DNA from: a virus
Strand: one strand, 5' to 3'
DNA: 64,000 bases
IMG/VR virus record: IMGVR_UViG_3300032893_000735
Coordinates: 1 to 64,000 of that record
Made by a program: the position numbers and the translations under genes
The notes under the pieces: generated by a model
What the model saw: only the letters and a program-made list of their open reading frames with translations
Told to the model about the DNA's origin: nothing
The model's database searches: none
Shown here: positions 2 to 63,604 of the stretch, in pieces
Numbering within the stretch: position 1 is the stretch's first letter
Layout: every line of letters starts with the position of its first letter

Positions 2-121
2 GAGAAGGCGTATTCGGAACCTGAAAAGTACGAACCTTGGGGTCATTCTATCGGGGAACTGTACTTGGAAGGGTACGAGGAAGTATCTCCAGGAGTCTTT
101 GAAATTTATGTAGGAAGTTAG
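2..121 (+). CDS. 3' end of a hypothetical protein (runs off the window)
   Basis: Open frame EKAYSEPEKYEPWGH...EIYVGS ends in TAG at 119-121, convergent with phoH. Confidence 0.5.
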   Translation, partial: EKAYSEPEKYEPWGHSIGELYLEGYEEVSPGVFEIYVGS

Positions 122-139
122 TCCATTTTTCGGACATAG

Positions 140-179
140 AAAAGCCCCGCTCATCCGTAACCATCGGAGGCGGGGCTTT
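140..179. terminator. Probable bidirectional intrinsic terminator
   Basis: AAAGCCCCGC...GCGGGGCTTT inverted repeat with A/T flanks between convergent genes. Confidence 0.6.
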
Positions 180-186
180 GTTTGTG

Positions 187-975
187 TCAATCGGAGTACA
201 AATCGTAGGCTTCGACCACCTTTTTAACGACCGGGTGTCTGACCACATCCTTGTCCGTAAAATGGACAACCGCTACCTCTGGAACGTGTCGCAGTATGTT
301 CAACGCTTCAATTAGCCCTGACTTCTGCGGGTTAGGCAAGTCGATCTGGGTAATATCCCCGTTGATAACCATTTTCGACCCTGGACCCAACCGAGTCAGG
401 ACCATCTTTAGCTGAGCCGAAGTGCAGTTCTGCGCCTCGTCAATAATCACGAATGAGTTTTCCAAAGTCCGGCCTCTGAGAAATCCGAGCGCCGCAATCT
501 CGATAGTCTTGGACTCAATCATATCCTTGACCTTCTCGGGCGGAAGCATCTTACCGAGGGCGTCGTACAACGCCATCATGTAAGGGTCTACCTTCTCCTG
601 AAGACTGCCGGGAAGGAAACCTAACTTCTCCCCCGCTTCAACTGCGGGGCGGACAAGGATTATCTTGCTTATTTCCCGGTCGCGGAGGGCTTCTACAGCG
701 GAGAAGACGGCTAGGAACGACTTCCCGGTACCGGCGACTCCGATTCCGAAAGTCATATCGTGGTCGCGGATAGCTTCCAGATACGCCTTCTGGTTTTCGT
801 TGCGAGGGGAAAGTTTGAAGCGGATTGGTTTAGTGGGGGCTTCCGCTGGATCGGCGGGTACGTTGCGCTTTAGTCTCTTGGACAAGTGGGCTCCGTTTGT
901 TAAAGTTTGGTTAATGAGGGTTGTTTTGGGCGACGGTATCACTCTATACAGTATAGGAACCTTGAAATAATCCAA
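187..975 (-). CDS. phoH: PhoH-family ATPase (likely start TTG at 885)
   Basis: GVAGTGKS Walker A, RPAVEAGEKLGFLPG, RGRTL, DEAQN and GDITQIDL motifs; GGAG precedes the TTG at 885. Confidence 0.95.
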   Translation of the reverse strand: MDYFKVPILYRVIPSPKTTLINQTLTNGAHLSKRLKRNVPADPAEAPTKPIRFKLSPRNENQKAYLEAIRDHDMTFGIGVAGTGKSFLAVFSAVEALRDREISKIILVRPAVEAGEKLGFLPGSLQEKVDPYMMALYDALGKMLPPEKVKDMIESKTIEIAALGFLRGRTLENSFVIIDEAQNCTSAQLKMVLTRLGPGSKMVINGDITQIDLPNPQKSGLIEALNILRHVPEVAVVHFTDKDVVRHPVVKKVVEAYDLYSD

Positions 976-996
976 CAGGATACTTGAAGGAGTGAA

Positions 997-2211
997 ATGC
1001 TAGAAATTTACATGATAACTAATCTAGTTACTCGGAAGATTTACGTAGGAAAATCTATACCCGGAAGAGAGAAGAGATTCCGACGACATATTAATGACGC
1101 AAAAAATGGATCGAATCTTCCTCTTCACCGTTCTATGAGAAAACACGGCTTTGATAAATTCACCGTCTGTCTTTTAGATACCGCAAAAACCAAAGAAGAA
1201 CTCAATGAACTTGAGGTGTTCTGGATCAAGAAATTGCGGGCGAGAGACCCCGAAGTGGGGTACAACCTAACTGACGGGGGAGAAGGATGCGCCGGGGTAG
1301 TTCAGAGTGAAGAAACAAGAGCAAAGAGAAGTGAATCCCTGAAAGGGATGCACACCGGAAAATTTGTAGGGGAAAAGAGTTATCGTTTTCGCCACGATCT
1401 GTCTACTGAGCAGATGGTAGAAATGTATCAAAATGGGAAATCTAGCGGAGATATAGCTCGGGAATTAGGTGCTAGTAAAGAAACAATAAACAGTAGGCTG
1501 AAGTCGGCTGGTGTTGTTTTTCGCTCAAATAGTGATGCTCAGAAATTAAAATATTCTTCAGGCCACCATGCTGCGTCCTACCGAGAAGATGTGTCAACTG
1601 ATGATATGGTTTCCATGTTTTCTCAAGGTTTAACCCACCGAGAAATAGCCGATAAACTGGGGGTATCTAAGGCGTGCGTTAAGTCTAGGCTGGTTAAATT
1701 AGGGATACGCCGAACGCCACATAGATGCAATTTGGACAAGGGGAAGGTATCAGAAATGTACCAAGAAGGCTATACTGCTTACGAGATAGCGGATTTGTTC
1801 AACGTATCTCCTGGGGTTATATACAGATCCCTAGAAGAATCTGGGGTTCCAATTCGTCCGAAATCCAGCCAGCCGAAGAAGGCTCTCCGTACTGAGAAAG
1901 TGTGCTATGTGTGCAAAGTTCTTCTTCCTTTGACTTCCTACAATAAAGACAGAACCACCGTAGACGGACATATGGCAATTTGCAGGGAATGTTCAAGGGT
2001 CCTACGAAAGAAGAAATCGGAGGAGATTAAAGAATCTCGAATCTTTCCTCCTCCTTCTTTGGTATCGTATTTCACTGAGGAATCATGTTCAGAAAACGCT
2101 GAAACACAGGATCTTGCTGACGTTCTTGGGGAGTCAAGTCCTTCGACGCCTTACGAAGATATTTCTTCTGGTTCTGGACCAGAAGTGGTTGCAGAGCCTT
2201 CCGTTCTGTGA
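997..2211 (+). CDS. GIY-YIG homing endonuclease with NUMOD3/HTH repeats and a C-terminal Zn finger
   Basis: EIYMITN...IYVGKS, GYNLTDGGEG, repeated HTH segments; antisense to its neighbours. Confidence 0.85.
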   Translation: MLEIYMITNLVTRKIYVGKSIPGREKRFRRHINDAKNGSNLPLHRSMRKHGFDKFTVCLLDTAKTKEELNELEVFWIKKLRARDPEVGYNLTDGGEGCAGVVQSEETRAKRSESLKGMHTGKFVGEKSYRFRHDLSTEQMVEMYQNGKSSGDIARELGASKETINSRLKSAGVVFRSNSDAQKLKYSSGHHAASYREDVSTDDMVSMFSQGLTHREIADKLGVSKACVKSRLVKLGIRRTPHRCNLDKGKVSEMYQEGYTAYEIADLFNVSPGVIYRSLEESGVPIRPKSSQPKKALRTEKVCYVCKVLLPLTSYNKDRTTVDGHMAICRECSRVLRKKKSEEIKESRIFPPPSLVSYFTEESCSENAETQDLADVLGESSPSTPYEDISSGSGPEVVAEPSVL

Positions 2212-5200
2212 TATTTGCTTGATCCCAAACGTTCAAAAACTCTGCCGCCGGAAGTCGCGAGGATCGGGAGTACAGCCTCGCGATGTCCGTGGGCATATTT
2301 TGAGTTGCTTTAAAGTTGTTCTGAATTTTGCGAAGTTCACCTTCATTTAGCTGATTGGTGCTGTATGTTAGTTTCATCAACTCAGAGAACGGCAGGTCAC
2401 CAGAGCGAACTTGGTCCTCAAGATGCTGAATGTATCGGTGTCTAGCTTGTTGTGGCATAGAAACGGGGCCGTCCTCGTTATGGTTCGCGGCAAGTTCCAC
2501 GGCCATCTTCTGGGCAGGTGTTTGGTATTGTCTAGCTGTCCCGCCGACCCCCTTCCAAACTTGCCCGAGATTGCTAACCTCTGGCCCCGTATCGGTCATG
2601 GCTTGGCCTAGCGATTGTACTGGGATTGGTGCCAGTTGACTCAAAGCGTTAACCCAAAGATCATTAGGCTGCATCTTCCTGCCCATCTTGTCCCGCCCTG
2701 TAATTAACTGAGTAGCCAATCCTACTCCGGGTGACAAGCGGCCTTTGATGAAATCTGAGGGCGAACTCATCATATGAAGAATGTCAGTTGGCAGTACGCG
2801 AATACTCCACAATGTCTCCTTACCATCCTTCGACTTGGTAGCCAGAGAGAATGGGGCTTCGGGGTGCATGTTTCCAGTGGTCAGTTGGTTAAGAACACGA
2901 GCCATCAAGTACACACCAGCGGCCATACCGATTACCTGCTTACGACCAATTGCTCCTTCGTCTCGGTTGAATAAACGAGCACCTGAACGCATTTCGGATT
3001 CGAGCCAGTCCGGGGCGAGAAGAAGCGCGCGCGCGAAATCGGACGTGGTGGCATTTCGGCCCATTGCCCTATAATTCACGCCACCAAAAGAATCATTGGC
3101 GTGCTGCGCCGCCGCCCTAGCTACTTTTTCAGTAGACCATTCAGGGTACTTTGCGCGGTAATCGTCGAATAGTTTTTCGGCGGCAGTCATTTTCCAAGCG
3201 GGCATTGCCCTCTTAAATATGAAATCAGTTTGGGCCTGCATCGTATCAGCTAGAATAGGACCGATTCCGGGGATTTTACGGAGTAGATTATGCTCTCCCG
3301 AAGCTAGACCTTCGGTAAATTCCTGCTGACCCTTATAATCAATTCCGGTAGTCAGATTGTTTCTGACCATTGCCTTGATCTTAGTTTCTGAATTAGGATC
3401 GAGCGGGTCTATCTTTGCTCCGTTTTCAATATCGGGAGTGTGCAGTGAGAACGGATTTACTCCCGTCATGATGGATCTTAACCCGAGCTGCACCAAATGG
3501 AAGGGAGACAAACTAAGCAAAGTTTCCTTCGCCGCTTTTCCGGCCTTCAGAACCGCCCGTCCTACCGAACTCTTAGACAACGCCCCCTGTTCCAGTCCAA
3601 GCCGGTTCTTCAGATACTCAGCGTACTCCGGACTAGCCAAGATGTCCGAATTGACCAGAACTTGCGTCCCGTCTGGGGAGTTGGTTACGAAGTTCCACCC
3701 ACGCATCGCTGTGTGGTCCAGAGCGATATACCCTTGCGGATTCCAGGCATACTTCTTCGGAATCGCTTCGTTGAAATCTTTCAGGCCGGAGTAGTCTCCG
3801 GTTCTCTGCATTTCTTTCAACTGGGCAATTTGCTGGCGGAGGATGTTGTTTCCTTCGGAGTCGTATTTTGCTTCCTTCCGCATCGCTTCGTTTTCCATAC
3901 GTTCGATAGCGGCCTTGATGTTGTCTGGATGGACTTTCGGAGTCATGTCCTTGATAGTTCCGTCGTCCAGGAATCTTTGCAGGTCTCCCGAAGCGTCCAT
4001 TTTCTGGACTTCCGCATCCGCAATATTGATCTTCCGAACCCGAGAAGCGTCTACGAAAATCTTCGGGTCTTCCCCGTTTGGTCCGGACACAACGTTGCCT
4101 TCCCCCGACAAATATGCAATCGGGCGACCATACGAGTCTTTCAACCCGCTGGACATGAGGTTGGATATGAACTTCCGATTTGCTGCGGCTTTGATGATGT
4201 CTACGCGGTCCCCCGCCGTAGCTGCTGCGGGGTCAAATTTCATATCCTTGGGTGACTGTAAAAGAGCAGTCATCAACGTATCATACGTGCGGTTTCGGGC
4301 GGAAGTTACGTTGGTGGCAAATTTACCAGCCTTGGCGTTAGCTACGACTACTCTTCCTTCTGGATTATCTTCAAAGAACCTGTGTAGGTGGTTTTCTACA
4401 TACTCTTTGATGAGTGCGTTTTGATGCGCAAGTTCCCAGTTGCGGTCTTCTTCTGGCCGCATGTAGTCATAAGCGGATTTTACGTTATCAGGAATATCGC
4501 CTTGGGCTATTCTCTTCAAAGAGTCTAGTACAAGGTTTTTATACTCGGCAGAACGTCCTGAGAATTTGTTGTTTTCAATGAGTTGTTTGAGGTTAGCAGG
4601 CATTCCATTTTCTGGACGAGTTGCCCTTCCGACATCCCCTCGGGATGTTTCCACCCCCTCCTTTACTCCTGTATCTGATGCCTCAGCACCCAATATTCGG
4701 CCACCTGCTCCTTGCCCAGTACCTTCAATTCTCTCCTCCCTTCCATCTGCCTCCGACAGAACATTGTAGTATGAAGCGGCTTTGTTCTGGTCGTTCCCTA
4801 ACTCGTGCATAAAAGTCAACAGAGCTTTATCCGACCGTTTCTGCGCTTTTACTTCTTCTGAATCTCCCAGAATTCCCGGCTTATCATGGCCTAAACGCTT
4901 GTTGACTTCTTGTGCGACATTTATCCCTTGTGATTCGGCTACAGCATGTTCTGCCTCTCGAACTCCATTCAGATTATTCACCTTCAGAGTTTCGTCGCTT
5001 GGCTTGAGTTTCGTCCCGAGTACGGGCTCGGCCAGCTCCCCCCAAGAATGAAGGGCATGAGAAGCACCTGCAACTCCGAGTACAGAGTTTGCTGCCCATT
5101 CCGTTCCGTATTCCGCCGCCTTATCGTAGTCTCCTTCTTTCAGTGCATCAAAGAATCGGGGGGACATAGCCGCCGCGCCTTCTAATTGCTGGAGGGTAAA

Positions 5201-6208
5201 TCCAGTGTTCAAGAGCGTGTTGGCGGTCTTCGCCATCTTGACCGTAGTTCCGAGAGACATTTCCGGGGCGATATTGTGGATAACATGAAACGCCCCGCGC
5301 TCCAAAGCGTTTCCGCCGAGCAGGTCTTCTACGCCGAGTCCGTGTTGGTCGAGGACATCTTGTCCGCGCCTCCAAAGATCAGGGTCAACTCCGGCTTCTC
5401 GGACAGCATCTTCTACGGGAGTGAAACCTTCCTGGGCCTTCTTGATCGCATCGCCAGTTTGGGCTAGGTCTTTTAGTTCGGCTCGGGTGAACCCACCCTT
5501 CTCAGCGGCGATTGCGTCTCTGGCTTCTGGAGACAGTTCTCCCGCCTTTAGAGCCTCCCGCTCCGCTTTGTTCAGCCCCACATCCATAAGGCTTCTTTGG
5601 AATTCTTCTTCGCCCAGTTCCGCGTCGCGGCTAACTGCACCAAATACGTTCCTCGCCCTCTGGAGGAGTCCGAGGTCGTGCCCTCCAGCTTTAAGGGCTT
5701 CATCAATTACTGGTTTTACGTCGGGCAGACTTCGGGCGGTATCCCGAGCTATCTTAGCACCCTTGGCAATCTGCGCGATTTCGTCTGCGTTAAATGCAGC
5801 TTCGCCTCCCTCGGTTATAGCTTCTTTGAGGGCGGTTTCTCCGGCTGAAGCTAGCGGGGCACCTGTACCGAAAGTAGCGGCGGTAAGAGCTAACGACAAG
5901 GGACTCGTGAGAGACGAAGCTATATGTTCCACGCCCCTTTCGAATCCTGAAGCCCCTTCTCTTTCTTCTGGGAGACCGAATAAACTCTCGGTCAACGGAG
6001 TCTGCATCCAGTCAAAAGCTCTAGAGTACCAAGCAGCATTAGGATCTTGATATAGATGCTTAATAGGTGCTGGAGTTTCGGAGGGCTGTCTAGAAGTAAT
6101 ACTAGAGGGGCCACCGAAAATATCGCTGAGGTCCGGTCCTGAAGTTTGTTTCGGGGCGGTCGTGGCTGGGCTTCCGAAGATGTCACTCAAATCTGGAGTT
6201 TGCGGCAT
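2072..6208 (-). CDS. Large internal virion / DNA ejection protein
   Basis: 1378 aa, helical Ala/Gly-rich, last gene of the virion module. Confidence 0.6.
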   Translation of the reverse strand: MPQTPDLSDIFGSPATTAPKQTSGPDLSDIFGGPSSITSRQPSETPAPIKHLYQDPNAAWYSRAFDWMQTPLTESLFGLPEEREGASGFERGVEHIASSLTSPLSLALTAATFGTGAPLASAGETALKEAITEGGEAAFNADEIAQIAKGAKIARDTARSLPDVKPVIDEALKAGGHDLGLLQRARNVFGAVSRDAELGEEEFQRSLMDVGLNKAEREALKAGELSPEARDAIAAEKGGFTRAELKDLAQTGDAIKKAQEGFTPVEDAVREAGVDPDLWRRGQDVLDQHGLGVEDLLGGNALERGAFHVIHNIAPEMSLGTTVKMAKTANTLLNTGFTLQQLEGAAAMSPRFFDALKEGDYDKAAEYGTEWAANSVLGVAGASHALHSWGELAEPVLGTKLKPSDETLKVNNLNGVREAEHAVAESQGINVAQEVNKRLGHDKPGILGDSEEVKAQKRSDKALLTFMHELGNDQNKAASYYNVLSEADGREERIEGTGQGAGGRILGAEASDTGVKEGVETSRGDVGRATRPENGMPANLKQLIENNKFSGRSAEYKNLVLDSLKRIAQGDIPDNVKSAYDYMRPEEDRNWELAHQNALIKEYVENHLHRFFEDNPEGRVVVANAKAGKFATNVTSARNRTYDTLMTALLQSPKDMKFDPAAATAGDRVDIIKAAANRKFISNLMSSGLKDSYGRPIAYLSGEGNVVSGPNGEDPKIFVDASRVRKINIADAEVQKMDASGDLQRFLDDGTIKDMTPKVHPDNIKAAIERMENEAMRKEAKYDSEGNNILRQQIAQLKEMQRTGDYSGLKDFNEAIPKKYAWNPQGYIALDHTAMRGWNFVTNSPDGTQVLVNSDILASPEYAEYLKNRLGLEQGALSKSSVGRAVLKAGKAAKETLLSLSPFHLVQLGLRSIMTGVNPFSLHTPDIENGAKIDPLDPNSETKIKAMVRNNLTTGIDYKGQQEFTEGLASGEHNLLRKIPGIGPILADTMQAQTDFIFKRAMPAWKMTAAEKLFDDYRAKYPEWSTEKVARAAAQHANDSFGGVNYRAMGRNATTSDFARALLLAPDWLESEMRSGARLFNRDEGAIGRKQVIGMAAGVYLMARVLNQLTTGNMHPEAPFSLATKSKDGKETLWSIRVLPTDILHMMSSPSDFIKGRLSPGVGLATQLITGRDKMGRKMQPNDLWVNALSQLAPIPVQSLGQAMTDTGPEVSNLGQVWKGVGGTARQYQTPAQKMAVELAANHNEDGPVSMPQQARHRYIQHLEDQVRSGDLPFSELMKLTYSTNQLNEGELRKIQNNFKATQNMPTDIARLYSRSSRLPAAEFLNVWDQANITERKALQPLLVQNQKKYLRKASKDLTPQERQQDPVFQRFLNMIPQ

Positions 6209-7134
6209 TATTGTACTCTCGTTTCTCCTCTTTTATTTCTAAGTATAACTCCTTCTTTTAACAGGCGAAGTCTAACCGCCGATGAAGTTATCTCAAACAT
6301 CTTCGCTACTTGGACTAAAGAGTTGCCTTGCTCATACAATTCCACAAGTTTTTTACTATCAACATCGATAAACTCTTCTTTGCCTTCTTTGATTAGTTTT
6401 TTCCTGTGGGCGTCTCTGGTATTTGGTCGGGGAGAAATTCCTAATTCCCTTAGCCTACCCCTTACCAAAGTTTTTTCAACTCCGAAAATACTAGCTATTT
6501 GTCGAGTAGACTTTCCAGATTCGTACAATCTAACAATTTCCTCTGAAGAAACTTCGTGATTGTAATTAGACGAATTAGGCCCCTCTCTTTTTACAATAAC
6601 TTTGTCTTCTTTGGTTTTTCTAATTTTACCGTTACCTCCTCTGCGCACAACTCCGGCCTCTTTTAGACGAGATAAAACGCAACTTCTACTTATCCCAAGT
6701 TCTTCTGAGATGGTGTTGCTTCCCTTATTTTCCAGATATAGCTTGATTATTTCTTCTGTGCTAACATCCCGTCTTCGATTTGAAGACTCTTTCATTTTCT
6801 CTATGGTTTCAAGGGATCGTTTCAGTCCGCTAAACGTATCTCCCCCGTCTCCGCCTTCTGTCATATTGTACCCATAGTCTGGATTATTGGAATCCATGAG
6901 AAAGATCCATACTTTTTCCAAATCGTTAAGCTCTTTCTTACTTGTCGCCGTATCGACAATTTCTATAAGAAAGGCGGATAAACCATATTTTCGCATAGCT
7001 GAGTATAGACGATTGACACGACCATTTTCACAATTGCTTATATGCTTCATCCACCTTACGAAAGGATTTTTCTCAGTCTTACCTATGTAAGACTTACCAT
7101 TGACGAGATTTTTGATTTGATATATGTAGAACAT
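6208..7134 (-). CDS. GIY-YIG homing endonuclease with HTH repeats
   Basis: YIYQIKN...YIGKT, GYNMTEGGDG. Confidence 0.88.
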   Translation of the reverse strand: MFYIYQIKNLVNGKSYIGKTEKNPFVRWMKHISNCENGRVNRLYSAMRKYGLSAFLIEIVDTATSKKELNDLEKVWIFLMDSNNPDYGYNMTEGGDGGDTFSGLKRSLETIEKMKESSNRRRDVSTEEIIKLYLENKGSNTISEELGISRSCVLSRLKEAGVVRRGGNGKIRKTKEDKVIVKREGPNSSNYNHEVSSEEIVRLYESGKSTRQIASIFGVEKTLVRGRLRELGISPRPNTRDAHRKKLIKEGKEEFIDVDSKKLVELYEQGNSLVQVAKMFEITSSAVRLRLLKEGVILRNKRGETRVQ

Positions 7135-9384: not shown

Positions 9385-10161
9385 CTACCCGCCTATAGCG
9401 CCCAAAGCAAAGTTTCCTAGTTGTTCGAGACCAGTAGAGCCGCCAGTTGTATCTAGGTTTCCTAGCCCAGCGCCCATAATGCCCCCACCACTGCCTAGCA
9501 ACATCTTGCCGAAAGAAGGAGCAGCAGCGTCTAATTCTTGGATTTTGGATGCTTGGTTGAAAGCCTGGGCTCCCGCAGTATTAGCTGCATTTGCGTAGGA
9601 TGAAGGATTATACAACCCGGCTAAACTGCCCATCTGCCCCATCGCATTCATATAATTCTGTCGGCCTTGCGCGTACCCTTGCTCCGTAATCCCGAGTTGC
9701 TGTCCCGATTCTTGCTGCGCTGCGGCTTGAGCCAAACGAGCTTGATTAGCCGCCTGAACTCCTGAACCTATGAATTGGTTTCCCCCGCCTTGCGCCGCTT
9801 GAGCCTCTTGACTAGCAGTCTTGGCGGCTTGGTACGCTCCAGAAGTTCCAGCAGTCGCTTGAGTCCTCATCGCGGCGTCTTCGGCGTTTGTGAATCCATA
9901 CTGTCCGATACCTTGGTTGATGATCGGTTGAAGAGAAGATTTTAATCCGCTGATGATATTATTCATCCCAGAGAAACTCTGCTCGTAGTCGTTCATCAGA
10001 GTGGATGTGAACGCCTGCGATTGGTCCGCTTCTGTCCTCTGTTGCCCAGACGCGCCTTTACAAGAGGCAACTTCTCCCGTCCAGAAAATGGACGAGCGGC
10101 GGAGTAGAATGTACCGATTCTGGCGGTCGCTCCAAACGTATTCTGTTTTTGAGTAGATCAT
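9385..10161 (-). CDS. Putative DNA pilot / ejection protein
   Basis: Gln/Ala/Gly-rich, Gly-rich hydrophobic C-terminus. Confidence 0.5.
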   Translation of the reverse strand: MIYSKTEYVWSDRQNRYILLRRSSIFWTGEVASCKGASGQQRTEADQSQAFTSTLMNDYEQSFSGMNNIISGLKSSLQPIINQGIGQYGFTNAEDAAMRTQATAGTSGAYQAAKTASQEAQAAQGGGNQFIGSGVQAANQARLAQAAAQQESGQQLGITEQGYAQGRQNYMNAMGQMGSLAGLYNPSSYANAANTAGAQAFNQASKIQELDAAAPSFGKMLLGSGGGIMGAGLGNLDTTGGSTGLEQLGNFALGAIGG

Positions 10162-52438: not shown

Positions 52439-52447
52439 ATTTTAAAA

Positions 52448-52521
52448 TGGTCGGGGTAGAGGTAATCGAAACCTCGTCTTATGATCCCAAATCATAGGCT
52501 TGACCTTCCAGCTATACCCCG
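52448..52521 (-). tRNA. tRNA-Pro(TGG)
   Basis: TATGA-TTTGGGA-TCATA; CCA. Confidence 0.85.
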
Positions 52522-52522
52522 A

Positions 52523-52598
52523 TGGTGGGCAGTCGCAGAATCGAACTGCGCCGTGAGGCTTTTCAGACCTCCGTTCCAACCATGCAAACTCACTACCC
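52523..52598 (-). tRNA. tRNA-Phe(GAA)
   Basis: Loop CTGAAAA; CCA. Confidence 0.8.
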
Positions 52599-52710
52599 AA
52601 AACTTATTCGGTTTTATCTGCATCATCATTCTCGGGCATATAAGAGGTTAGTCAAGCTAACGTAGGATGCTTGCAATGGCAGAGCGGGAAACCGAAAAAC
52701 ACCTTTGTAT

Positions 52711-52786
52711 TGGTGGAGCATGTCGGATCTGCCCCGACTGCCTCCGCGTTGCAGGCGCGGCGCTCTCCTAATTGAGCTAATGCCCC
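52711..52786 (-). tRNA. tRNA-Ala(TGC), C33
   Basis: G3.U70 pair; loop CCTGCAA; CCA. Confidence 0.85.
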
Positions 52787-53367
52787 TACTCGGGGTGCCT
52801 CCATTTGTAAGGCCCGTCCCGATTATTATAGTGGTCCAAATCATGACAATTAGGGCATAAGAGTTCCAAATTGTCTATCGTATTATTTGTTCGATCTCTA
52901 TCCTTATGGTGAACTTGCAAAATTTCCGGATGAAGATCATACCCACATCTGTTACAAATCTTATCGTAAGTTCGAAGTGCTATCGCTCTGTAGCTGTATC
53001 TTCCATCGCCATAATGACTTGGTCTGAGAATTTCATTATGCTTTCCCATTCTTTGGGCGTCATCTTTGCAGATTCTAGAACAAAATCGGAGTCCGCTCTT
53101 CGATTTCTTGAGATTAGATTGACTTCTGTAAAAGATCAACCCACAGTTGTCACACTTTAGTTCATGTATTTTAGACGGATTGGATGCTCGGAAACATTCA
53201 GGGCTACAGTATCTCCTACCTGCATGTTTTGGGGCATAGAAACTTTTTCCGCAAAAAGTACAGAACTGCAAAAACAACTTACGCTGCTTTCCATCATAGA
53301 TAGTTGAAACAATTACCTCTTCCACGTTTAGTCCTCTTCTGGGGGCGGGACCTACGCGAATCATCAA
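52786..53367 (-). CDS. HNH endonuclease with Zn fingers, inserted in the tRNA array
   Basis: Multiple CxxC; QVHHKDRDRTNNTIDNLELLCPNCH. Confidence 0.85.
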   Translation of the reverse strand: MMIRVGPAPRRGLNVEEVIVSTIYDGKQRKLFLQFCTFCGKSFYAPKHAGRRYCSPECFRASNPSKIHELKCDNCGLIFYRSQSNLKKSKSGLRFCSRICKDDAQRMGKHNEILRPSHYGDGRYSYRAIALRTYDKICNRCGYDLHPEILQVHHKDRDRTNNTIDNLELLCPNCHDLDHYNNRDGPYKWRHPE

Positions 53368-53440
53368 TCCACCACCTGTAGAATTTCTATGCTACAGGAC
53401 ATTTACCACGCTTGAGTTTAGCATCCTCAAACACTTATTT

Positions 53441-53520
53441 TGGGGTGGCCGGAGGAAGTTGAATCCTCAAGAAGCAAATTCCACAGACTTGTCCGACATA
53501 CCCGTAGTCGGCACGGCCAC
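53441..53520 (-). tRNA. tRNA-His(GTG), no encoded G-1
   Basis: Loop CTGTGGA; C73; CCA. Confidence 0.75.
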
Positions 53521-53547
53521 ACTTGTTGTCCATTATCTGGACGAAAC

Positions 53548-53629
53548 TGGAGCCTAGTGAGGGACTCGAACCCTCGCGTTGGAATGGCAGTTTACAAAAC
53601 TGCTGCTGTCGCCGCTGAGCCAACTAGGC
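53548..53629 (-). tRNA. tRNA-Thr(TGT), enlarged variable loop
   Basis: GCAGT-TTTGTAA-ACTGC; CCA. Confidence 0.85.
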
Positions 53630-53675
53630 ATTTCACGTCCGCACTTAGGGAGGCGGAACTCCAACTTACAAAGAA

Positions 53676-53704
53676 ATACTACCACAACATTTCTTAATTG
53701 TCAA
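53676..53704 (-). promoter_or_regulatory. Internal sigma70 promoter of the tRNA array
   Basis: TTGACA-N17-TAGTAT with extended TG. Confidence 0.7.
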
Positions 53705-53712
53705 GCGAAATC

Positions 53713-53787
53713 TGGAGCCGAATAGCGGCCTCAAACCGCTGTCTCATGCGTACCAAGCATGTGCTCTTTCTGTTGAGCTAATTCGGC
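53713..53787 (-). tRNA. tRNA-Thr(GGT)
   Basis: Loop TTGGTAC; CCA. Confidence 0.8.
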
Positions 53788-53788
53788 T

Positions 53789-53862
53789 TGGAGCCCAATT
53801 GGGGAATTCAACCCCAGTCTTCTCTGTACGAAGGAGATGTACTGGCACTGTACTAATCGGGC
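53789..53862 (-). tRNA. tRNA-Thr(CGT)
   Basis: Loop TTCGTAC; CCA. Confidence 0.75.
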
Positions 53863-53868
53863 ATTAGT

Positions 53869-53943
53869 TGGCTCCGCCGCGAGGTTACGATCCCCGTTTC
53901 CCGAGTTCAAAGCCCGGTGCCTTACCGATTAGACGACGGCGGA
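53869..53943 (-). tRNA. tRNA-Gln(TTG)
   Basis: Loop CTTTGAA; U1-A72; CCA. Confidence 0.8.
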
Positions 53944-53949
53944 ATAACT

Positions 53950-54028
53950 TGGGGAGGTAGACGGGAATTGAACCCGCGTAACACGGTGTGAAAGACCGTG
54001 GACAAAAACCAGCGTTGTCGGCTACCTC
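53950..54028 (-). tRNA. tRNA-Glu(TTC)
   Basis: ACGGT-CTTTCAC-ACCGT; CCA. Confidence 0.75.
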
Positions 54029-54045
54029 AAACTTTTTATCTAAAA

Positions 54046-54132
54046 TGGCGGAAGTCGGAGGTAACGATCCCCCATCCCTTTCGGGAGCCACGGTTTTCAA
54101 AACCGTTTGTCTCACCATCGACGGCGACTTCC
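54046..54132 (-). tRNA. tRNA-Ser(TGA)
   Basis: Loop TTTGAAA; long V-arm; G73. Confidence 0.85.
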
Positions 54133-54136
54133 AAAC

Positions 54137-54224
54137 TGGCGGTTGGTTGAGAAATCGAATCCCCGTGCCTTACGACACTCCGACTGCTTTCGAAACAGTT
54201 TGCGAACCTTTCGCGGAACCAACC
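54137..54224 (-). tRNA. tRNA-Ser(CGA)
   Basis: Loop TTCGAAA; long V-arm; G73. Confidence 0.75.
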
Positions 54225-54374
54225 TTAAACTAATTCGCGGAGAGAATTTCGGCGTCAGTACAATGTTTCTTTCGCTGGGCAGTTTCTCTCTGCCTCGGAT
54301 CGGGTTCTAGACCCCGTTAGCTAGTACCTGAAAAGCATCCCTCGTCTGCACACGACCTATTTCTAGCGCGAAAC

Positions 54375-54460
54375 TGGCGGAAAGCACAGGAGTTTAACCT
54401 GATACCTTTCAGTACGCATCCGCTTCCAACGGAGCCTCGGAACGTCCGAGTTTACTTTCC
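54375..54460 (-). tRNA. tRNA-Ser(GGA)
   Basis: Loop TTGGAAG; long V-arm; G73. Confidence 0.75.
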
Positions 54461-54461
54461 A

Positions 54462-54550
54462 TGGCGGAGAAGGTGGGTGCTGACCCCACGCGGCTCTTTC
54501 AAGTCCACTGGTTTAGCAAACCAGCCCGTTTACCGTTCCGGCACTTCTCC
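54462..54550 (-). tRNA. tRNA-Ser(GCT)
   Basis: Loop TTGCTAA; long V-arm; G73. Confidence 0.85.
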
Positions 54551-54628
54551 GTAAAACTTGGTTGAGAACGTGTGCTCTGGTCGGGTTGATTAAGCACGTT
54601 TACCGCAGCCGACCAGCGTTCTCAAACT

Positions 54629-54706
54629 TGGTGCGGATGGTCGGATTTGAGCCGACAGACCGAAAGGTTTGAGCTTTCGAGGTATTCCAATTCCCATCAC
54701 ATCCGC
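54629..54706 (-). tRNA. tRNA-Leu(CAA) with a short variable loop
   Basis: GAAAG-CTCAAAC-CTTTC; CCA. Confidence 0.75.
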
Positions 54707-54711
54707 AAACT

Positions 54712-54793
54712 TGGTACCCGCAGAGGGACTTGAACCCCCACCCCTAGAGAATGCATCCTAAGTGCATCGTGTCTGCCATTCCACCATGCGGGC
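54712..54793 (-). tRNA. tRNA-Leu(TAG)
   Basis: Loop CTTAGGA; CCA. Confidence 0.85.
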
Positions 54794-54803
54794 AAAATTA
54801 AAC

Positions 54804-54890
54804 TGGTACTCGGGAAGGGACTCGAACCCTCATCCCCTTTCGAGGATTAGCACCTCAAGCTAACGCGGCTTCCAATTTCGCCACCCGAGT
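54804..54890 (-). tRNA. tRNA-Leu(GAG)
   Basis: Loop TTGAGGT; long V-arm; CCA. Confidence 0.85.
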
Positions 54891-54965
54891 AAAACTTTGT
54901 CGGATTTGTCCAGGCGGGGTCCGACTGGCCTCGATACGTTTAAAGTGGTGTTTGTCATCCACTAA

Positions 54966-55040
54966 TGGAGTACCGTGCTGGACTTCAACCAGCTAAAGAG
55001 GTTTTGCAGACCTCTGATTCGAGCCTTTATCTTACGGTAC
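54966..55040 (-). tRNA. tRNA-Cys(GCA)
   Basis: Loop CTGCAAA; U73; CCA. Confidence 0.75.
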
Positions 55041-55041
55041 A

Positions 55042-55117
55042 TGGTAGGCGGCCCGAGATTCGAACTCGGATATCAACGATCTTAAATCGTTTGCCTTTGC
55101 CGTTAGGCTAGCCGCCC
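55042..55117 (-). tRNA. tRNA-Leu(TAA) with a short variable loop
   Basis: AACGA-TTTAAGA-TCGTT; CCA. Confidence 0.8.
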
Positions 55118-58462: not shown

Positions 58463-58677
58463 TAGGTAAGCGATACTACGTAAGCGTATGGGTTGGTACG
58501 GGCCCGTGTGATCCATTGCGAATCTAGCAATAATTGACCGCGACTGAGGATAGCGCTTGCTGTGTGCGGGCCCGTCTATAGTGTATAGAGTGATTCGGGG
58601 CGCGAAAACGTGCATTCCGTCCGTAAAATGGATTTTCGCAATGTTTTTCGGCCTTCATTATCAATCGTTTAGGGTAG

Positions 58678-59256: not shown

Positions 59257-59515
59257 AATCCGTCCAGATAATGGACAACTTACAGCGTAACCCATCCGCT
59301 ATATGATGGGCGGGGAGTTGAGACAATGCCTGATTTTTCTATCGGATGTTTGCTGGTTATTCTCGGCGTAGTGTTGTGTTTAGTGGCGCAGTTTCTCGCC
59401 GAATGGATCAATGATTAGCGTCCATTTTTCAGACAACACCCTAGGGTAAAATCGCCAGTACTGCGCTGTTTTGCCCTACTGATCTGTACTCACGGCGCAA
59501 TGGAGGAGCTAGAAA

Positions 59516-59719: not shown

Positions 59720-59822
59720 TCGCAGAGTGGCCGTCCGGAAAATGGACGGTTAATGCGGCGGTCCCGTCACAAGCCGGGACAATCCAAACCGTATTCCGTG
59801 AAACTCACGGCGAAAGGGAAAC

Positions 59823-60341: not shown

Positions 60342-60362
60342 TCCCATTTTCCGGACAAAACA

Positions 60363-60545: not shown

Positions 60546-60766
60546 CCATTCAGCAAGCCGCATGGCAAAAAAGAAGCGACGTTGTCGATGTAGACTGGAA
60601 GGAATTGTGGGAGCGGTACGACTACCCGCATGCTACGATTCTCGGAGGCTGCCAGAACGTCTCGCACCGCACGGCGCAACCGTTCTGGAGCACACTCAAA
60701 CGGGCGGCGGTTTTGACCGTGCTGTTTACGGCAGTGTTCGCCATTTTCACCGCAATTGTGTTTTAG
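60542..60766 (+). CDS. Small membrane protein (GTG start)
   Basis: GGAGG RBS; C-terminal TM segment. Confidence 0.5.
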   Translation: MTIQQAAWQKRSDVVDVDWKELWERYDYPHATILGGCQNVSHRTAQPFWSTLKRAAVLTVLFTAVFAIFTAIVF

Positions 60767-60782
60767 TCCATTTTCTGGAAAG

Positions 60783-60830
60783 TTTTCCACAATTTTCAGG
60801 CTTGACACGGAAAACAATAACAACTAATCT
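60783..60830 (+). promoter_or_regulatory. Early promoter with a TTTTCCACA box
   Basis: TTGACA-N17-TAATCT. Confidence 0.65.
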
Positions 60831-61166: not shown

Positions 61167-61360
61167 CGGCACAATCCGAAAAATGGACAACTCACGGGGG
61201 GAAGGTGTACCATGAAAACAATTTTCTGGGATGTGTTTCATAATGGGCGCAAGATTGACAGCGTACCATATTCGGCGGACTGTGATAAGGAATATGTGCG
61301 CCGCTCACTGATTGAACACGACGGGTATAACCCCGACATCCTTGTCCGCAAGGCGCGATA

Positions 61361-61696: not shown

Positions 61697-61863
61697 TTTT
61701 CAGGACAAGGAAAGACGCGAAGTCGTGGGCGAAAGCGAATCTCCGAGGAAAATACTATCGCCTTGTGACATCTTACGTAAACGCAGAGCGCGGCTATGAG
61801 ACGAAAATCGCTCTCCAGTCCCGCCCATTTAGCCGAATGAATGATCCGAAAGTTTACGCCTAA
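61693..61863 (+). CDS. Small basic hypothetical protein
   Basis: ATGA overlap with the upstream gene; GGAGG RBS. Confidence 0.5.
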   Translation: MIFRTRKDAKSWAKANLRGKYYRLVTSYVNAERGYETKIALQSRPFSRMNDPKVYA

Positions 61864-61919
61864 CCGCTTAGCCGGAGCGTTATCCGGCCCCTCTACCGGG
61901 TTTAACGGTCCCGGCACTG

Positions 61920-62786
61920 ATGAGCGCGAAAGGCGCGAAAGGGAGAATCCAAAAAAAAATGGACAGAACGACGAATCGAGTGGACGTACCGAAACGGGTT
62001 TTAGATCGCGTCTACGCATCGAAACCTGAAGACTGGAAACAGCACGAAAACGGCGGCGGATGGGTGCATAAAACCGCTTATGTTGAAAAATCGGCTTATT
62101 TGCATCCTACGTCGATTGTGTCCGGCGATGCTCGGGTGTACGGCAATGCTCGGGTGTACGGCGATGCTTGGGTGTCCGGCAATGCTTGGGTGTACGGCAA
62201 TGCTCGGGTGTACGGCGATGCTTGGGTGTCCGGCAATGCTCGGGTGTCCGGCAATGCTTGGGTGTCCGGCGATGCTCGGGTGTCCGGCGATGCTCGGGTG
62301 TCCGGCGATGCTTGGGTGTCCGGCAATGCTCGGGTGTCCGGCAATGCTCAGGTGTCCGGCGATGCTTGGGTGTCCGGCAATGCTCGGGTGTACGGCAATG
62401 CTCAGGTGTCCGGCAATGCTCAGGTGTCCGGCGATGCTTGGGTGTCCGGCAATGCTCGGGTGTACGGCAATGCTCAGGTGTCCGGCGATGCTCGGGTGTA
62501 CGGCAATGCTCGGGTGTCCGGCGATGCTCGGGTGTCCGGCGATGCTTGGGTATTTTCGCCCCTCTACATCCAAGGCACAATGCACTCGCTCACCTTGTGC
62601 AGTTTTACGCAAATTGCTGTAGGGTGCCACGTCCATGATATAACCTATTGGATGAAGCATTACAAGGCAATAGGGCGGACCGAGGGGTACACGAAAGAAC
62701 AGGTAAGCGAGTACAAACGACATTTGGATTATTTGGCCGCAGAGTCTGAGCGGCTACTGGCTGCAAAAATCGAAACGAAGGAATAA
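61920..62786 (+). CDS. Hexapeptide-repeat (left-handed beta-helix) protein
   Basis: 24 x V[SY]G[DN]A[RWQ]; HENGGGWV N-terminus and IAVGCH C-terminus. Confidence 0.8.
   Translation: MSAKGAKGRIQKKMDRTTNRVDVPKRVLDRVYASKPEDWKQHENGGGWVHKTAYVEKSAYLHPTSIVSGDARVYGNARVYGDAWVSGNAWVYGNARVYGDAWVSGNARVSGNAWVSGDARVSGDARVSGDAWVSGNARVSGNAQVSGDAWVSGNARVYGNAQVSGNAQVSGDAWVSGNARVYGNAQVSGDARVYGNARVSGDARVSGDAWVFSPLYIQGTMHSLTLCSFTQIAVGCHVHDITYWMKHYKAIGRTEGYTKEQVSEYKRHLDYLAAESERLLAAKIETKE
62118..62549 (+). repeat. 24 tandem 18-bp units GTGT(A/C)CGGC(A/G)ATGCT(C/T)(G/A)G
   Basis: Read directly; coding repeat. Confidence 0.95.
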
Positions 62787-62877
62787 CCAACCGCCCGCCG
62801 GAGCGTATCCGGTAGGCTCTACAGGCAAGCCGTCACGGGGCAGAGCTGAGCATCTACTAATTGCCTAAAGGAGAACC

Positions 62878-63405
62878 ATGAGTAAGTACACGGAACAGGC
62901 GGAAAAGTTTCTCAAGGACCACGGCCTGACATTCACGGCGCAGCTTATCGGGTCTGATTGCCCGAAGTTTTGCGAAGATGCAGCCAAAATGCGGGAAATG
63001 GACAACCACGAATTCCTATCAGAAGTAAACGAAGCGGGCGAAAGTTTTGCAGAATCCGCCCAAGAAATGTTAGACGCACTCCGCGCGGCGCAAGAATCCG
63101 AGGACAATGAGGCTGAGGATGAAGCGCGGCGGACAATTGACGCGCACCCGCTTTCGGTCCAGGTTCGTGGCGGATGGCATACTCCGGGTTGCGGCGGCAG
63201 AGTGGCGGAGGAATTCGAGATTCTGCTAGGCACCGGTGGCCCCGCATCCAGGATCATCGGGGAACTGAACGAATACGCCGAACCCGATTCGGCGCGGTTT
63301 GAATATCAGGATTGGTTTAAGCCGTGGACTCCAGCGCTCAACTTGTCTGAAGATCAGAATGAAGCGATCCTAGAATTTGCCCGCCAGTTCTATTACGGCG
63401 AATAA
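62878..63405 (+). CDS. Early hypothetical protein
   Basis: AAGGAG RBS; EILLGTGGPASRI.G....A.FEYQDWF.PW. Confidence 0.75.
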   Translation: MSKYTEQAEKFLKDHGLTFTAQLIGSDCPKFCEDAAKMREMDNHEFLSEVNEAGESFAESAQEMLDALRAAQESEDNEAEDEARRTIDAHPLSVQVRGGWHTPGCGGRVAEEFEILLGTGGPASRIIGELNEYAEPDSARFEYQDWFKPWTPALNLSEDQNEAILEFARQFYYGE

Positions 63406-63604
63406 CTCACGGCGCAACCGGCCCGCCCATCGGCCTAAAGGTGGGGCAGAGAATCAGGAAAGGGGAGTAAAAAAAAAGATGGCATACCCAACTCTTGAGC
63501 AATTTGAGCAAGCCCGCCGCGAACTAAGGCGTGCGGATAACACCGAACTGGAACAGAAAAAGCCAAAGAGCAACGAGTAACAGTCCAGAAAATGGACGAC
63601 AGAG

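Follow-up and report, generated by a model that had tools for sequence, protein, structure and literature searches.

A 15-base palindrome dispersed through a phage genome and its relatives, a putative double-stranded DNA site for a dimeric protein

The window, the whole 64-kb stretch of viral DNA analysed here, comes from the 105,825-bp genome of a wetland phage and includes a split capsid gene, a portal gene with an intein, two tail-fibre-like genes, a tRNA cluster and a Twister-P5 ribozyme, among which copies of a 15-base palindrome are scattered. In its perfect-arm form the motif reads GTCCA-N5-TGGAC, and its spacer is T/A-rich. The copies in the window are as follows (strand in brackets; CDS, within a coding sequence).

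121-135 (+), variant GTCCATTTTTCGGAC, intergenic, adjoining a terminator-like hairpin
253-267 (-), 2 mismatches, CDS, peptide VHFTD
2501-2515 (+), weak 3-mismatch match, CDS, possibly chance
3995-4009 (+), perfect, CDS, peptide VQKMD
4603-4617 (+), 1 mismatch, CDS, peptide RPENG
10079-10093 (-), perfect, CDS, at the identical aligned position in the G002 and G004 orthologues
12834-12848 (-), variant GTCCATTTTTCGGAC, CDS
14123-14137 (-), weak 3-mismatch match, CDS
15762-15776 (+), weak 3-mismatch match, CDS
16569-16583 (-), perfect, directly 3' of a TTGACA/TACAAT promoter; a 1209-aa gene starts 20 nt on
17054-17068 (+), copy filling a gap, stop 7 nt and next start 4 nt away
18937-18951 (+), copy directly followed by an SD, start codon 11 nt past the motif
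21707-21721 (-), variant, CDS, peptide CPFFG, kept in G004
22486-22500 (+), weak 3-mismatch match, CDS
23808-23822 (+), perfect, intergenic; its own ATG opens a 203-aa frame
24854-24868 (+), variant directly followed by an SD, start 11 nt on; the G004 orthologue also has an upstream motif
26387-26401 (+), perfect, CDS, peptide VQKMD
26931-26945 (-), 1 mismatch, intergenic
28158-28172 (+), spacer variant; its TAA is the upstream stop and its ATG the next start
29491-29505 (+), perfect, capsid locus, peptide VQKMD
29825-29839 (+), perfect, capsid locus, 30 nt from an Rfam group I intron match
30168-30182 (-), 2 mismatches, intron, flanked by two capsid exon pieces
31138, weak copy between mapped capsid exon pieces
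32822-32836 (+), variant, capsid locus, 5' part
33724-33738 (+), perfect, CDS, peptide VQKMD
34261-34275 (+), copy whose base 1 is the final base of a stop codon
35195-35209 (+), 3 mismatches, 2 nt past a stop
35418-35432 (+), copy directly followed by an SD, start 11 nt on, promoter ~75 nt upstream
37441-37455 (-), variant, portal intein, peptide VHFSD
39766-39780 (-), variant, 4 nt past a stop
40202-40216 (+), perfect, intergenic by the gene calls of this analysis
41398-41412 (+), 2 mismatches, CDS
43168-43182 (+), 1 mismatch, in a repeated element 3' of the two tail-fibre-like genes
45707-45721 (-), variant, CDS, peptide CPFFG
46539-46553 (+), perfect, CDS, peptide VQKMD
47605-47619 (-), perfect, 3 nt past a stop; a conserved 106-aa Lys-rich protein starts 12 nt on
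48864-48878 (-), 3 mismatches, CDS
49573-49587 (-), 1 mismatch, overlapping a stop, next start 14 nt on
51449-51463 (-), 1 mismatch, right behind the last gene of the tRNA cluster
53528-53542 (+), 1 mismatch, flanked by tRNA genes
58619-58633 (-), 3 mismatches, divergent region separating two arms
59262-59276 (-), 1 mismatch, 5 nt past a stop
59420-59434 (+), 3 mismatches, intergenic
59733-59747 (-), copy at the top of a stem-loop in the Twister-P5 ribozyme (59721-59778)
60342-60356 (+), 3 mismatches, abutting a stop
60766-60780 (+), 1 mismatch, overlapping a stop, TTGACA promoter ~20 nt downstream
61174-61188 (-), 3 mismatches, stop 7 nt and start 23 nt away on either side
63583-63597 (-), perfect, TTGACA promoter ~24 nt downstream
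63814-63828 (-), 3 mismatches with perfect arms, stop codon in the spacer

At three or fewer mismatches to GTCCATTTTCTGGAC the window holds 48 copies, in line with the original prediction of about 40, against 2.2 expected by shuffling (best shuffle, 6), so that about 2 of the 11 three-mismatch matches in the window are probably due to chance. Perfect-arm matches to GTCCANNNNNTGGAC number 18, a count reached by no dinucleotide shuffle (0.04 expected); overall, the excess over shuffles is ~20- to 400-fold. The whole genome has 90 copies (≤3 mismatches), or 0.85 per kb. The single invariant half described originally is borne out by GTCCATT, which occurs 81 times genome-wide and is followed by GGAC at the correct distance in about 67 cases, and the half-site GTCCATTT is steadily better conserved than the opposite half. 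Copies are spaced more evenly than random (CV 0.78 vs 0.98, P = 0.016) and oriented 59:31, a 2:1 bias found in all five genomes that could reflect an excess of A over T on the sense strand, as observed in the window.

Coding copies in the genome number 43, 21 and 16 (≤3 mismatches, ≤1 mismatch and perfect arms, respectively), as compared with 21, 3.6 and 3.1 after synonymous-codon shuffles that keep the protein, and 3.5, 0.01 and 0.09 after codon-order shuffles, which indicates that both codon choice and protein sequence have been bent to the motif. The recurring peptides reported from the first inspection are found again: VQKMD is encoded at 3995, 26387, 29491, 33724 and 46539, CPFFG at 21707 and 45707, and RPENG, VHFSD and VHFTD at 4603, 37441 and 253. 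The motif, which exceeds dinucleotide, codon-order and synonymous-codon shuffles alike and is kept across a deep clade, is thus under strong selection at the nucleotide level.

With respect to genes, 47 of the 90 copies lie between genes or across the end of one in a genome of which 13% is non-coding, in keeping with the gene-boundary preference first proposed. A start codon lies -6 to +14 nt past the motif in 27 copies, and a stop codon -10 to +13 nt from it in 27. In long intergenic regions copies hug either the stop (≤5 nt) or the SD (start 10-12 nt off), the slot before the SD being filled in either orientation, and some provide the stop (TAA within the spacer) or the start (ATG within the motif) themselves. 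The suggested proximity to promoters holds only for a few copies (16569, 60766 and 63583), and the motif is neither a promoter nor a terminator.

The presence of copies in mobile elements, also part of the original prediction, extends to a ribozyme stem as well as to the intein and introns. The portal protein has 1048 aa, and the copy at 37441-37455 falls at about residue 415, inside the Hint and LAGLIDADG matches (residues 381-636) of an insert that is missing from relatives. For the capsid introns the prediction is borne out in part. The capsid gene is split, and its exon pieces match an orthologue in G004 that has no interruption (87-100% identity); the copy at 30168 and the weak one at 31138 lie between these pieces, and those at 29491, 29825 and 32822 fall outside the homology-mapped span.

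The motif is also abundant in at least nine related phage contigs (G001-G004 and G006-G010) with ~30-60% protein identity, the first four of which span 39.5-52% G+C. Five relatives were analysed whole, and in four of them its density is ~0.5-0.9 per kb; it is absent from the more distant Tunturi_3. The GTCC and GGAC arms are fixed, while the dominant spacer differs by genome (TTTTC; TTTTC with C at position 11; TTTTA or TTTAA; TTATC; TTAAC), and such lineage dialects fit co-evolution with a lineage-encoded reader. In L261 (~65-70% nucleotide identity), five of the six alignable sites occupy identical positions, their arms being better conserved than background and their spacers different; in distant relatives, site positions turn over. 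The G002 and G004 orthologues of the 106-aa Lys-rich protein also have an upstream copy.

The same palindrome occurs in unrelated elements as arrays phased at ~22 bp inside lambda-O-like (Phage_rep_O or HTH_36) initiator genes, which marks it as a typical winged-helix-dimer site. These origin iterons share the 5-bp arms and A/T-rich 5-bp spacer, are often the identical 15-mer and yield the same VQKMD and PENG peptides on translation; however, they form 2-15 phased copies in one place within the initiator gene, whereas the present genome (G000) has dispersed single copies and no O-like protein.

Altogether, we consider it about an even chance (roughly 0.5) that the 15-mers are double-stranded DNA sites for a clade-encoded, sequence-specific, two-fold symmetric (dimeric) protein. 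A DNA site is favoured over an RNA hairpin because variants that break pairing are common, flanks are symmetric without covarying, and phased iteron arrays exist elsewhere. In G000, 29% of sites have an A-C mismatch at pair 5/11, a share that rises to 67% in G001, and variants at this pair are not enriched in the transcript orientation that would give G-U (9 G-U vs 13 A-C). Flanks prefer pyrimidines 5' and purines 3', and pairwise flank covariation is absent in four of the five genomes tested, the exception being G001 (-3/+3, p = 0.002; -1/+1, p = 0.03). The dimeric site of the original prediction is supported in part, by nucleotide-level selection and a favoured duplex symmetry, and none of the roles listed there is singled out. 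Several features count against a DNA site: the 15-mer is predicted to fold into a hairpin (-3.4 to -5.5 kcal/mol; mean pair probability 0.79 in mRNA context), one copy forms a working stem of the Twister ribozyme, the hugging of stops and SDs in long intergenic regions is what one would expect of an element acting in RNA or translation, and the better conservation of GTCCATTT is not predicted by a perfectly symmetric dimer.

An RNA-level function is possible but rather unlikely, in which a 5-bp hairpin at gene junctions would be the target of an endoribonuclease or RNA-binding protein, or an insulator beside the ribosome-binding site, and would punctuate polycistronic mRNAs as the early-region ribozymes do. 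Besides the predicted hairpin, it would accommodate the 27 copies that have a start codon 10-12 nt (or -6) past their end and the SD between, the 27 at -10 to +13 nt from a stop, long intergenic regions included, and the ribozyme stem-loop that uses a copy in the same kind of slot; on the sense strand the motif also has the architecture of lambda boxB, a 5-bp stem with a GAAAA loop. Yet, apart from the broken 5/11 pairs and the lack of covarying flanks, one third of the copies are reversed, and so present another loop, at the same positions, the loop sequence varies by lineage, and 43 copies lie deep within ORFs. Moreover, a purely structural hairpin would lose its stem sequence across 30-60% protein identity, and Pfam scans showed no Cas6-, RegB- or coat-like protein.

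It is improbable that the copies serve replication or recombination, whether as dispersed single iterons, as priming or nicking sites of the phage replisome (primase-helicase, clamp, clamp loader, SSB, RecT and endonuclease VII), or as boundaries of cassette exchange between co-infecting relatives. The iteron identity, the even spacing and the 2:1 orientation bias would fit, as would the hugging of both ORF ends predicted by a cassette-boundary model and the occurrence of clamp, clamp loader and SSB in the motif-bearing clade and not in Tunturi_3. However, G000 has neither an O-like or HTH_36 protein nor a phased array, 90 origins are implausible, genes with an upstream motif are not more often accessory than others (it precedes 14% of genes that have a G004 orthologue vs 19% of those that have none), and in alignments most coding copies are matched by residues and are not inserts of five codons. 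Recruitment or titration by the phage of a protein of its wetland host, e.g., a nucleoid protein or global regulator, is very improbable, for although many bacteria have GTCCA-N5-TGGAC pairs in tandem (a conserved pair in >25 Nocardia species), the motif is common to phages of 39.5% to 52% G+C with probably different hosts and their own dialects, is lacking in Tunturi_3, and showed a genome-wide excess in no bacterial genome in one scan not designed for that.

For the putative dimeric DNA site, the GTCCA and TGGAC half-sites would present their centres one helical turn apart over the A/T-rich spacer, and sites would be placed wherever a compact genome allows, i.e., in stop-to-RBS gaps, start/stop overlaps and tolerant protein positions, with inserted selfish DNA (introns, intein, ribozyme) carrying them as well. 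Since most sites are far from promoters, the bound protein would not control initiation; most likely it would act along the chromosome, either by blocking or punctuating read-through from one gene into the next in the same direction, or as a chromosome-organising or self-marking coat, in a manner resembling KorB operators or stoperators but symmetric. A packaging signal is unlikely, given 90 dispersed sites.

A lead for the putative reader is a 234-aa helical protein encoded beyond the window (genome positions 96998-97702), whose family is present in all five genomes, always adjoining an ECF-like phage sigma gene, and absent from Tunturi_3, a clade distribution common to many other genes. By fold and by language model, its nearest neighbours are DNA-binding domains of the ParB, KorB and DUF3102 type, all non-significant (Foldseek E-values ≥0.18; VIA Z ≤6.6); no DNA-binding family was matched significantly in sequence or fold, and Pfam HTH_ParB and DUF3102 gave no match at all.

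Among known systems, the DUS/USS of Neisseriaceae and Pasteurellaceae likewise show about one copy per kb, both orientations, a coding imprint and lineage dialects; the resemblance is population-genetic only, as they belong to cellular genomes with an uptake receptor, whereas the present phage gives no sign of DNA uptake. KorB operators (plasmid RK2) and ParB-parS are also palindromes (13-16 bp) bound by an HTH dimer, and those of KorB are dispersed across the replicon, many of them at a distance from promoters. These sites, however, number a dozen or fewer, and the 234-aa candidate, whose best fold neighbours are the DNA-binding domains of these proteins, below significance, shows neither a ParB N-terminal domain nor a Pfam match.

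Stoperators of Cluster A mycobacteriophages (L5, Bxb1) also comprise tens of genome-wide sites, mostly in short intergenic gaps away from promoters, and overlap start or stop codons. Each is an asymmetric 13-mer to which an immunity repressor binds as a monomer (PMC9283540), and they have a single orientation relative to transcription (PMC4351075). The comparison with a stoperator-like role breaks down on symmetry and orientation, as the present sites are symmetric, oriented 59:31 and accompanied by no repressor that we could find. Start-associated sequences (SAS) of Cluster K mycobacteriophages include the ribosome-binding site. They too are short conserved motifs at a fixed distance before many starts, closely linked to translation initiation sites (PMC3203893), whereas the present motif is separate from the SD, and starts account for only 27 of its 90 copies, stops or gene interiors for as many.

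Of the published systems, the nearest counterpart is a 17-bp palindrome, TGTTCGG-NNN-CCGAACA, found in Cluster O mycobacteriophages, for which a dimeric DNA-binding protein of unexplained role was inferred by its authors (PMC4351075). Similarities are that each genome has >30 copies, dispersed and with dyad symmetry around a TTT/AAA centre; that many of them are intergenic and roughly a third coding, mostly off promoters and in no strict orientation; and that the phage is apparently lytic, with SigA-type promoters, a clamp and a protein like ParB (PMC4351075). Its sequence and phage lineage are unrelated to ours. In the present phage the motif is about twice as dense (0.85 vs ~0.5 per kb), is fused to start and stop codons, is found in introns, intein and ribozyme, and persists, with lineage dialects, over a much deeper divergence.

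The palindrome GTCCA-N5-TGGAC and its variants occur far above background in the window, with 18 perfect copies against 0.04 expected and 48 copies of the consensus GTCCATTTTCTGGAC at up to three mismatches against 2.2 expected (90 genome-wide), which bears out the original prediction of about 40 copies. Among 81 copies aligned on GTCCATT, about 67 have GGAC at positions 12-15, the spacer is T-rich, and information ends about 3 nt outside the motif on both sides; GTCCATTTTTCGGAC is the second frequent form. The spacing is fairly even, more so than random (CV 0.78 versus 0.98, P = 0.016), the closest pair being 132 bp apart. The exact 15-mer was not found in the literature searched.

Forty-three copies lie within ORFs, often encoding VQKMD, xPENG, VHFSD or CPFFG, as anticipated from the idea that coding copies impose recurring peptides. 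At three stringencies (at most three mismatches, at most one, and perfect arms) 43, 21 and 16 coding copies are present, against 21, 3.6 and 3.1 in synonymous-codon shuffles that keep the proteins, and 3.5, 0.01 and 0.09 in codon-order shuffles; protein sequences and codon choices have therefore both been bent to the motif. Where an orthologue lacks a site, the peptide that aligns there is unrelated. The nucleotide sequence itself is under selection.

The window is the initial 64 kb of a single 105,825-bp viral contig of wetland metagenome origin, with 158 genes (codon-model gene calls) in two divergent arms: a minus-strand arm (187-57979) of virion genes and a 22-tRNA cluster, and a plus-strand arm (58765 to the end) of early and replication genes. 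The phage collection holds a single relative, the Acidobacteriota phage Tunturi_3 (a Tunturiibacter phage), at about 35-47% protein identity. Features of general interest in the window are:

51468-55117 (-), tRNA cluster, 22 genes
997-2211 (+), GIY-YIG endonuclease with repeated HTH modules
6208-7134 (-), paralogous GIY-YIG endonuclease with repeated HTH modules
38698-39516 (-), third paralogue of the same kind

The gene at 997-2211, absent from the codon-model gene calls, runs against the direction of its arm. Window positions 114-287 and 856-986 re-occur at genome positions 105530-105702 and in the last 130 nt, with 91% and 99% identity, and these contig-end repeats may reflect either terminal redundancy or an assembly artefact caused by population variants.

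The predicted concentration of copies at gene boundaries holds, since 47 of the 90 lie between genes or across a gene end in a genome that is only 13% non-coding. In 27 copies the start codon lies between -6 and +14 nt past the motif, most of these having the Shine-Dalgarno (SD) site directly after the motif and the start 10-12 nt beyond the motif end; in about five, an ATG within the motif is the actual start codon. A stop codon lies between -10 and +13 nt away in another count of 27, the TAA being supplied by the spacer variant AATAA or GATAA in eight and the last base of the stop by motif base 1 in seven. Fifteen copies are near both a stop and a start, and 39 sites in total are at a gene boundary. 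The slot before the SD site is used by both orientations (17 versus 5), and in long intergenic regions the copy-by-copy positions place the motif close to the stop or the SD site, not mid-region. The motif is a practical annotation landmark for gene boundaries in this clade.

Copies are also present in inserted elements, namely the portal intein, the capsid introns and a ribozyme:

59721-59778 (+), Twister-P5 ribozyme (Rfam RF02684, 57.3 bits; gathering score 37.6), after a stop codon and ahead of the following gene, with one stem-loop formed by a motif copy
35551-38697 (-), portal protein of 1048 aa with a Hint and LAGLIDADG intein at residues ~381-640
29377-33003 (-), split major capsid gene
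32698-32648 (-), capsid exon piece
32419-32366 (-), capsid exon piece
31308-31264 (-), capsid exon piece
31061-30582 (-), capsid exon piece
30347-30300 (-), capsid exon piece
30072-30040 (-), capsid exon piece
29869-30050, group I intron match (Rfam) at the capsid locus
31319-32269, LAGLIDADG endonuclease ORF at the capsid locus

The portal intein is specific to this genome, the portals of relatives having about 670-690 aa and no insert, and the capsid exon pieces are 87-100% identical to an uninterrupted orthologue in the relative G004. The capsid gene of another relative, G002, likewise looks split. That mobile elements carry the motif is confirmed for the intein and in part for the capsid introns, and two readings fit: selection on local density, or exchange of these inserts among motif-bearing relatives.

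An exact-match scan of IMG/VR returned several contigs with many copies, and tblastn identified these as relatives at about 30-65% protein identity, four of which (G001-G004; three whole, one nearly whole) were compared with the present genome (G000).

Motif content of the phage and its relatives (length; G+C; number of GTCC-N7-GGAC sites; dominant form)
G000; 105.8 kb; 49.7%; 61; TTTTCT
G001; 109 kb; 39.5%; 46; GTCCATTTTCCGGAC, flanks AT...AT
G002; 106.5 kb with terminal repeats; 44.9%; 21; TTTTCC and TTTTCT
G003; 60 kb; 52.0%; 27; as in G000
G004; 104.7 kb; 47.7%; 60; GTCCATTTTATGGAC and the fully symmetric GTCCATTTAATGGAC
Tunturi_3; 97.6 kb; 51.3%; 2; none

Conservation in related phages, on which the original prediction also turned, is clear in these four and in five further motif-rich contigs (one dominated by a TTATC spacer), against the two sites of the more distant Tunturi_3, and in many uncultured wetland and soil phages of about 100 kb each genome has 20 to 90 sites. 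Across genomes GTCC, GGAC and a T-run beside one of these arms do not vary, and positions 9-11 form a lineage dialect, through which the proposed reader protein should be findable by covariation. In a closer relative, represented by one 5.4-kb contig (L261; ~70% protein and ~65-70% nucleotide identity), site positions are largely kept: of the six sites that can be aligned, five recur, with unaltered arms and different spacers. Site positions turn over in the distant relatives: upstream sites are common with G004 in 3 of 17 cases, and coding sites are shared in 11 of 55 comparisons.

Such sites may be read in DNA or in the transcript. The transcribed motif is predicted to fold at -3.4 to -5.5 kcal/mol, with a pair probability of 0.79 in context, and one copy tops the stem of the Twister-P5 ribozyme. 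A functional hairpin of the boxB or REP kind is not supported, as pairing is not preserved through G-U or compensatory changes: the inner arm pair 5/11 is A-C in 29% of sites in this genome and 67% in G001, and with the common T11-to-C change the transcript would have G-U at 9 sites and A-C at 13. Overlapping codons account for the other orientation-specific variants, such as A for G at position 1 yielding a TAA stop. Flanking bases show a symmetric preference (pyrimidines 5' of the motif, purines 3' of it), with no pairwise covariation in four of the five genomes tested, the exception being G001 at -3/+3 (p = 0.002) and -1/+1 (p = 0.03). The orientation ratio of 59:31, part of an approximately 2:1 excess of the GAAAA sense in all five genomes (154:81), could result from the sense-strand A-over-T skew seen in the window and is no evidence for RNA function. 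The pairing, orientation and flank tests argue against a conserved RNA stem; an RNA-level role is unlikely overall, and is rated no lower because of the tight association of the motif with stop codons and ribosome-binding sites. Half-site centres are 10 bp apart across the A/T-rich spacer, and half-sites one such step apart over A/T-rich DNA are the classic geometry of a helix-turn-helix dimer.

Among DNA-level readings, the proposed stoperator-like network agrees with the 90 dispersed sites and fails on their symmetry and use of both orientations. Cluster A stoperators are likewise dispersed, mostly in short intergenic gaps (here 47 of 90 are intergenic or at a gene edge), but are asymmetric and oriented, unlike the symmetric arms found here with an orientation ratio near 2:1 also in the four relatives. 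They also belong to temperate phages with an immunity repressor that binds the sites; in this genome a tyrosine recombinase domain is present, and Pfam scans of 92 non-structural products gave no classical repressor or repressor-like HTH. The start-associated sequences of Cluster K are tied to starts, in contrast to the present motif, with 27 of 90 near starts and the SD site between motif and start. The closest published case is that of the Cluster O mycobacteriophages, whose 17-bp palindrome, centred on TTT, occurs in more than 30 copies, a third of them within coding sequence and most away from promoters; the authors inferred a dimeric binding protein and left the function unexplained (PMC4351075). 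Dyad symmetry, an A/T centre, and a partly intergenic, partly coding and mostly off-promoter placement are shared with it, but the sequence (TGTTCGG-NNN-CCGAACA) differs, so it is an analogue and not a homologue. The present clade is a richer instance of this phenomenon, dispersed palindromes that are neither promoter nor terminator having been described without explanation in a few phage groups.

A promoter, of sigma-70 or phage sigma type, is rejected on position: canonical TTGACA-N17-TAtAAT promoters stand separately in intergenic regions of both arms, the motif holds no fixed place relative to them, and SD-adjacent copies leave no leader. The claim that many copies adjoin promoters survives for three, one with the motif just downstream (16569) and two early ones with it 20-24 nt upstream (60766, 63583), but not for the other visible promoters, from which the motif is far away. 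The two early promoters (60781-60830 and 63598-63650, +) share an upstream element, AGTTTTCCACA, flanked by the motif copy on one side and the -35 box on the other. Over the -15 to +30 range examined, no partner element turned up farther than about ±3 nt from the motif. An intrinsic terminator, which needs a G+C-rich stem of at least 7 bp and a U tract, is excluded by the weak 5-bp stem, and no U tract or conserved T run was found downstream.

Outside the clade, the same palindrome serves as an iteron for O-like initiators. Unrelated IMG/VR contigs hold tight clusters of the identical 15-mer (six in 150 bp in L039; also L089, L098 and L110), and a scan of 185,579 species genomes turned up tandem arrays in many phyla, with 2-15 copies at a usual spacing of 22 bp; the tandem-pair pattern is loose, with many unrelated operators among its matches, and is not informative on genome-wide excess in any host. 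In L039 the array lies inside an ORF matching Pfam Phage_rep_O (2e-9) and in an HTH_36 protein family within 15 of 17 ORFs, the arrangement of the lambda origin inside the O gene. Winged-helix initiators thus genuinely use this palindrome as a type of iteron; translated arrays give VQKMD and PENG peptides as in this phage. Lambda-O-type origin iterons do not fit here: neither an O-like initiator (no Phage_rep_O match, a best HTH_36 score of 13.6 bits, below the cut-off, and nothing with an HMM of the array proteins) nor a phased array of at least three copies was found in the genome. Its copies represent a different element based on a site of this type. More than 25 Nocardia species (within loci L147-L221, from Nocardia and others) conserve a pair of GTCCA(C/T)TTTCTGGAC sites with a spacing of exactly 22 bp, and Saprospiraceae MAGs carry palindrome arrays of up to 15 copies. 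Two further ideas are rejected, since motif-bearing genes are not enriched for accessory genes (cassette boundaries) and most coding copies align to residues in orthologues (15-nt insertions).

We favour a symmetric dsDNA-binding protein, encoded by the phage, as the reader of the motif, with sites kept at roughly even density in whatever positions the compact genome tolerates. Once bound, it would either block read-through at gene junctions in the manner of stoperators or KorB, or organise or mark the chromosome. A more far-reaching and unlikely reading, at a probability of roughly 0.15, makes the motif a 'self' signature on the phage chromosome that is selected for its density, the phage equivalent of the dialects of DNA uptake sequences; a clade-encoded ParB/KorB-like protein would read it and so coat, organise or protect phage DNA, and selection on local density would force the mark into coding sequence and into each intron, intein or ribozyme that invades. 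Were the reader identified, together with what it does, the way in which a lytic phage marks or punctuates an entire chromosome would become clear, as would the reason why selfish inserts carry the mark.

One lead, not a finding, for this reader is a 234-aa helical protein (genome 96998-97702) that adjoins, in every motif genome, the gene of an ECF-like sigma factor (172 aa, 98279-98797; Pfam region 4 at 8e-7, region 2 at 1e-3); all five motif genomes have both and Tunturi_3 has neither, a distribution shared by the clamp, clamp loader, SSB and other genes. The 234-aa protein has approximately 105 homologues, all unnamed and all on phage-sized contigs, among them contigs of 96-113 kb in ENA, Logan and NCBI. 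The AlphaFold model is confident (pLDDT 89.6), and its nearest neighbours are ParB-parS and KorB-operator DNA-binding domains and DUF3102/ParB-HTH clusters, none of them significant: the top Foldseek rows are ParB-parS complexes at E-values of 0.18-2.5, VIA gives Z = 6.5 for ParB (rmsd 5.1, 113 aligned) and 5.3 for KorB, with all Z at most 6.6, and Atlas neighbours reach at most 0.91. There is no hit to Pfam HTH_ParB or DUF3102, Pfam and PDB sequence searches were empty, and a site at the gene start that might be autoregulatory occurs in L261 only. Other candidates were discarded: a Ser/Thr-rich paralogous family (24906, 48932, 50217, 50727) looks structural and not DNA-binding, and the HTH-metallophosphoesterase (genome 100807-101952) and the GIY-YIG multi-HTH endonucleases are not in all motif-bearing genomes.

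Further Pfam matches in the 58-104 kb region, mostly outside the window, comprise a Tad2-like anti-Thoeris protein, NAMPT/NAPRTase with PRPP synthetase, RecT, PhoH, the tyrosine recombinase, a primase-helicase and an intein (Hint/Intein_splicing); a C5 cytosine methylase at 87353-89197 has its match split in two. In the window, one and the same ~60-nt element, with a motif copy at its end, lies 3' of two large tail-fibre-like genes (18926-18998 and 42976-43247, -), whose N-termini also share a CPFFG motif copy and which are probably paralogues. Also outside the window, a 387-aa gene contains a 27-bp unit repeated 22 times in tandem (65017-65610), and a long (GGTCAG)n tract occupies 76437-76650.
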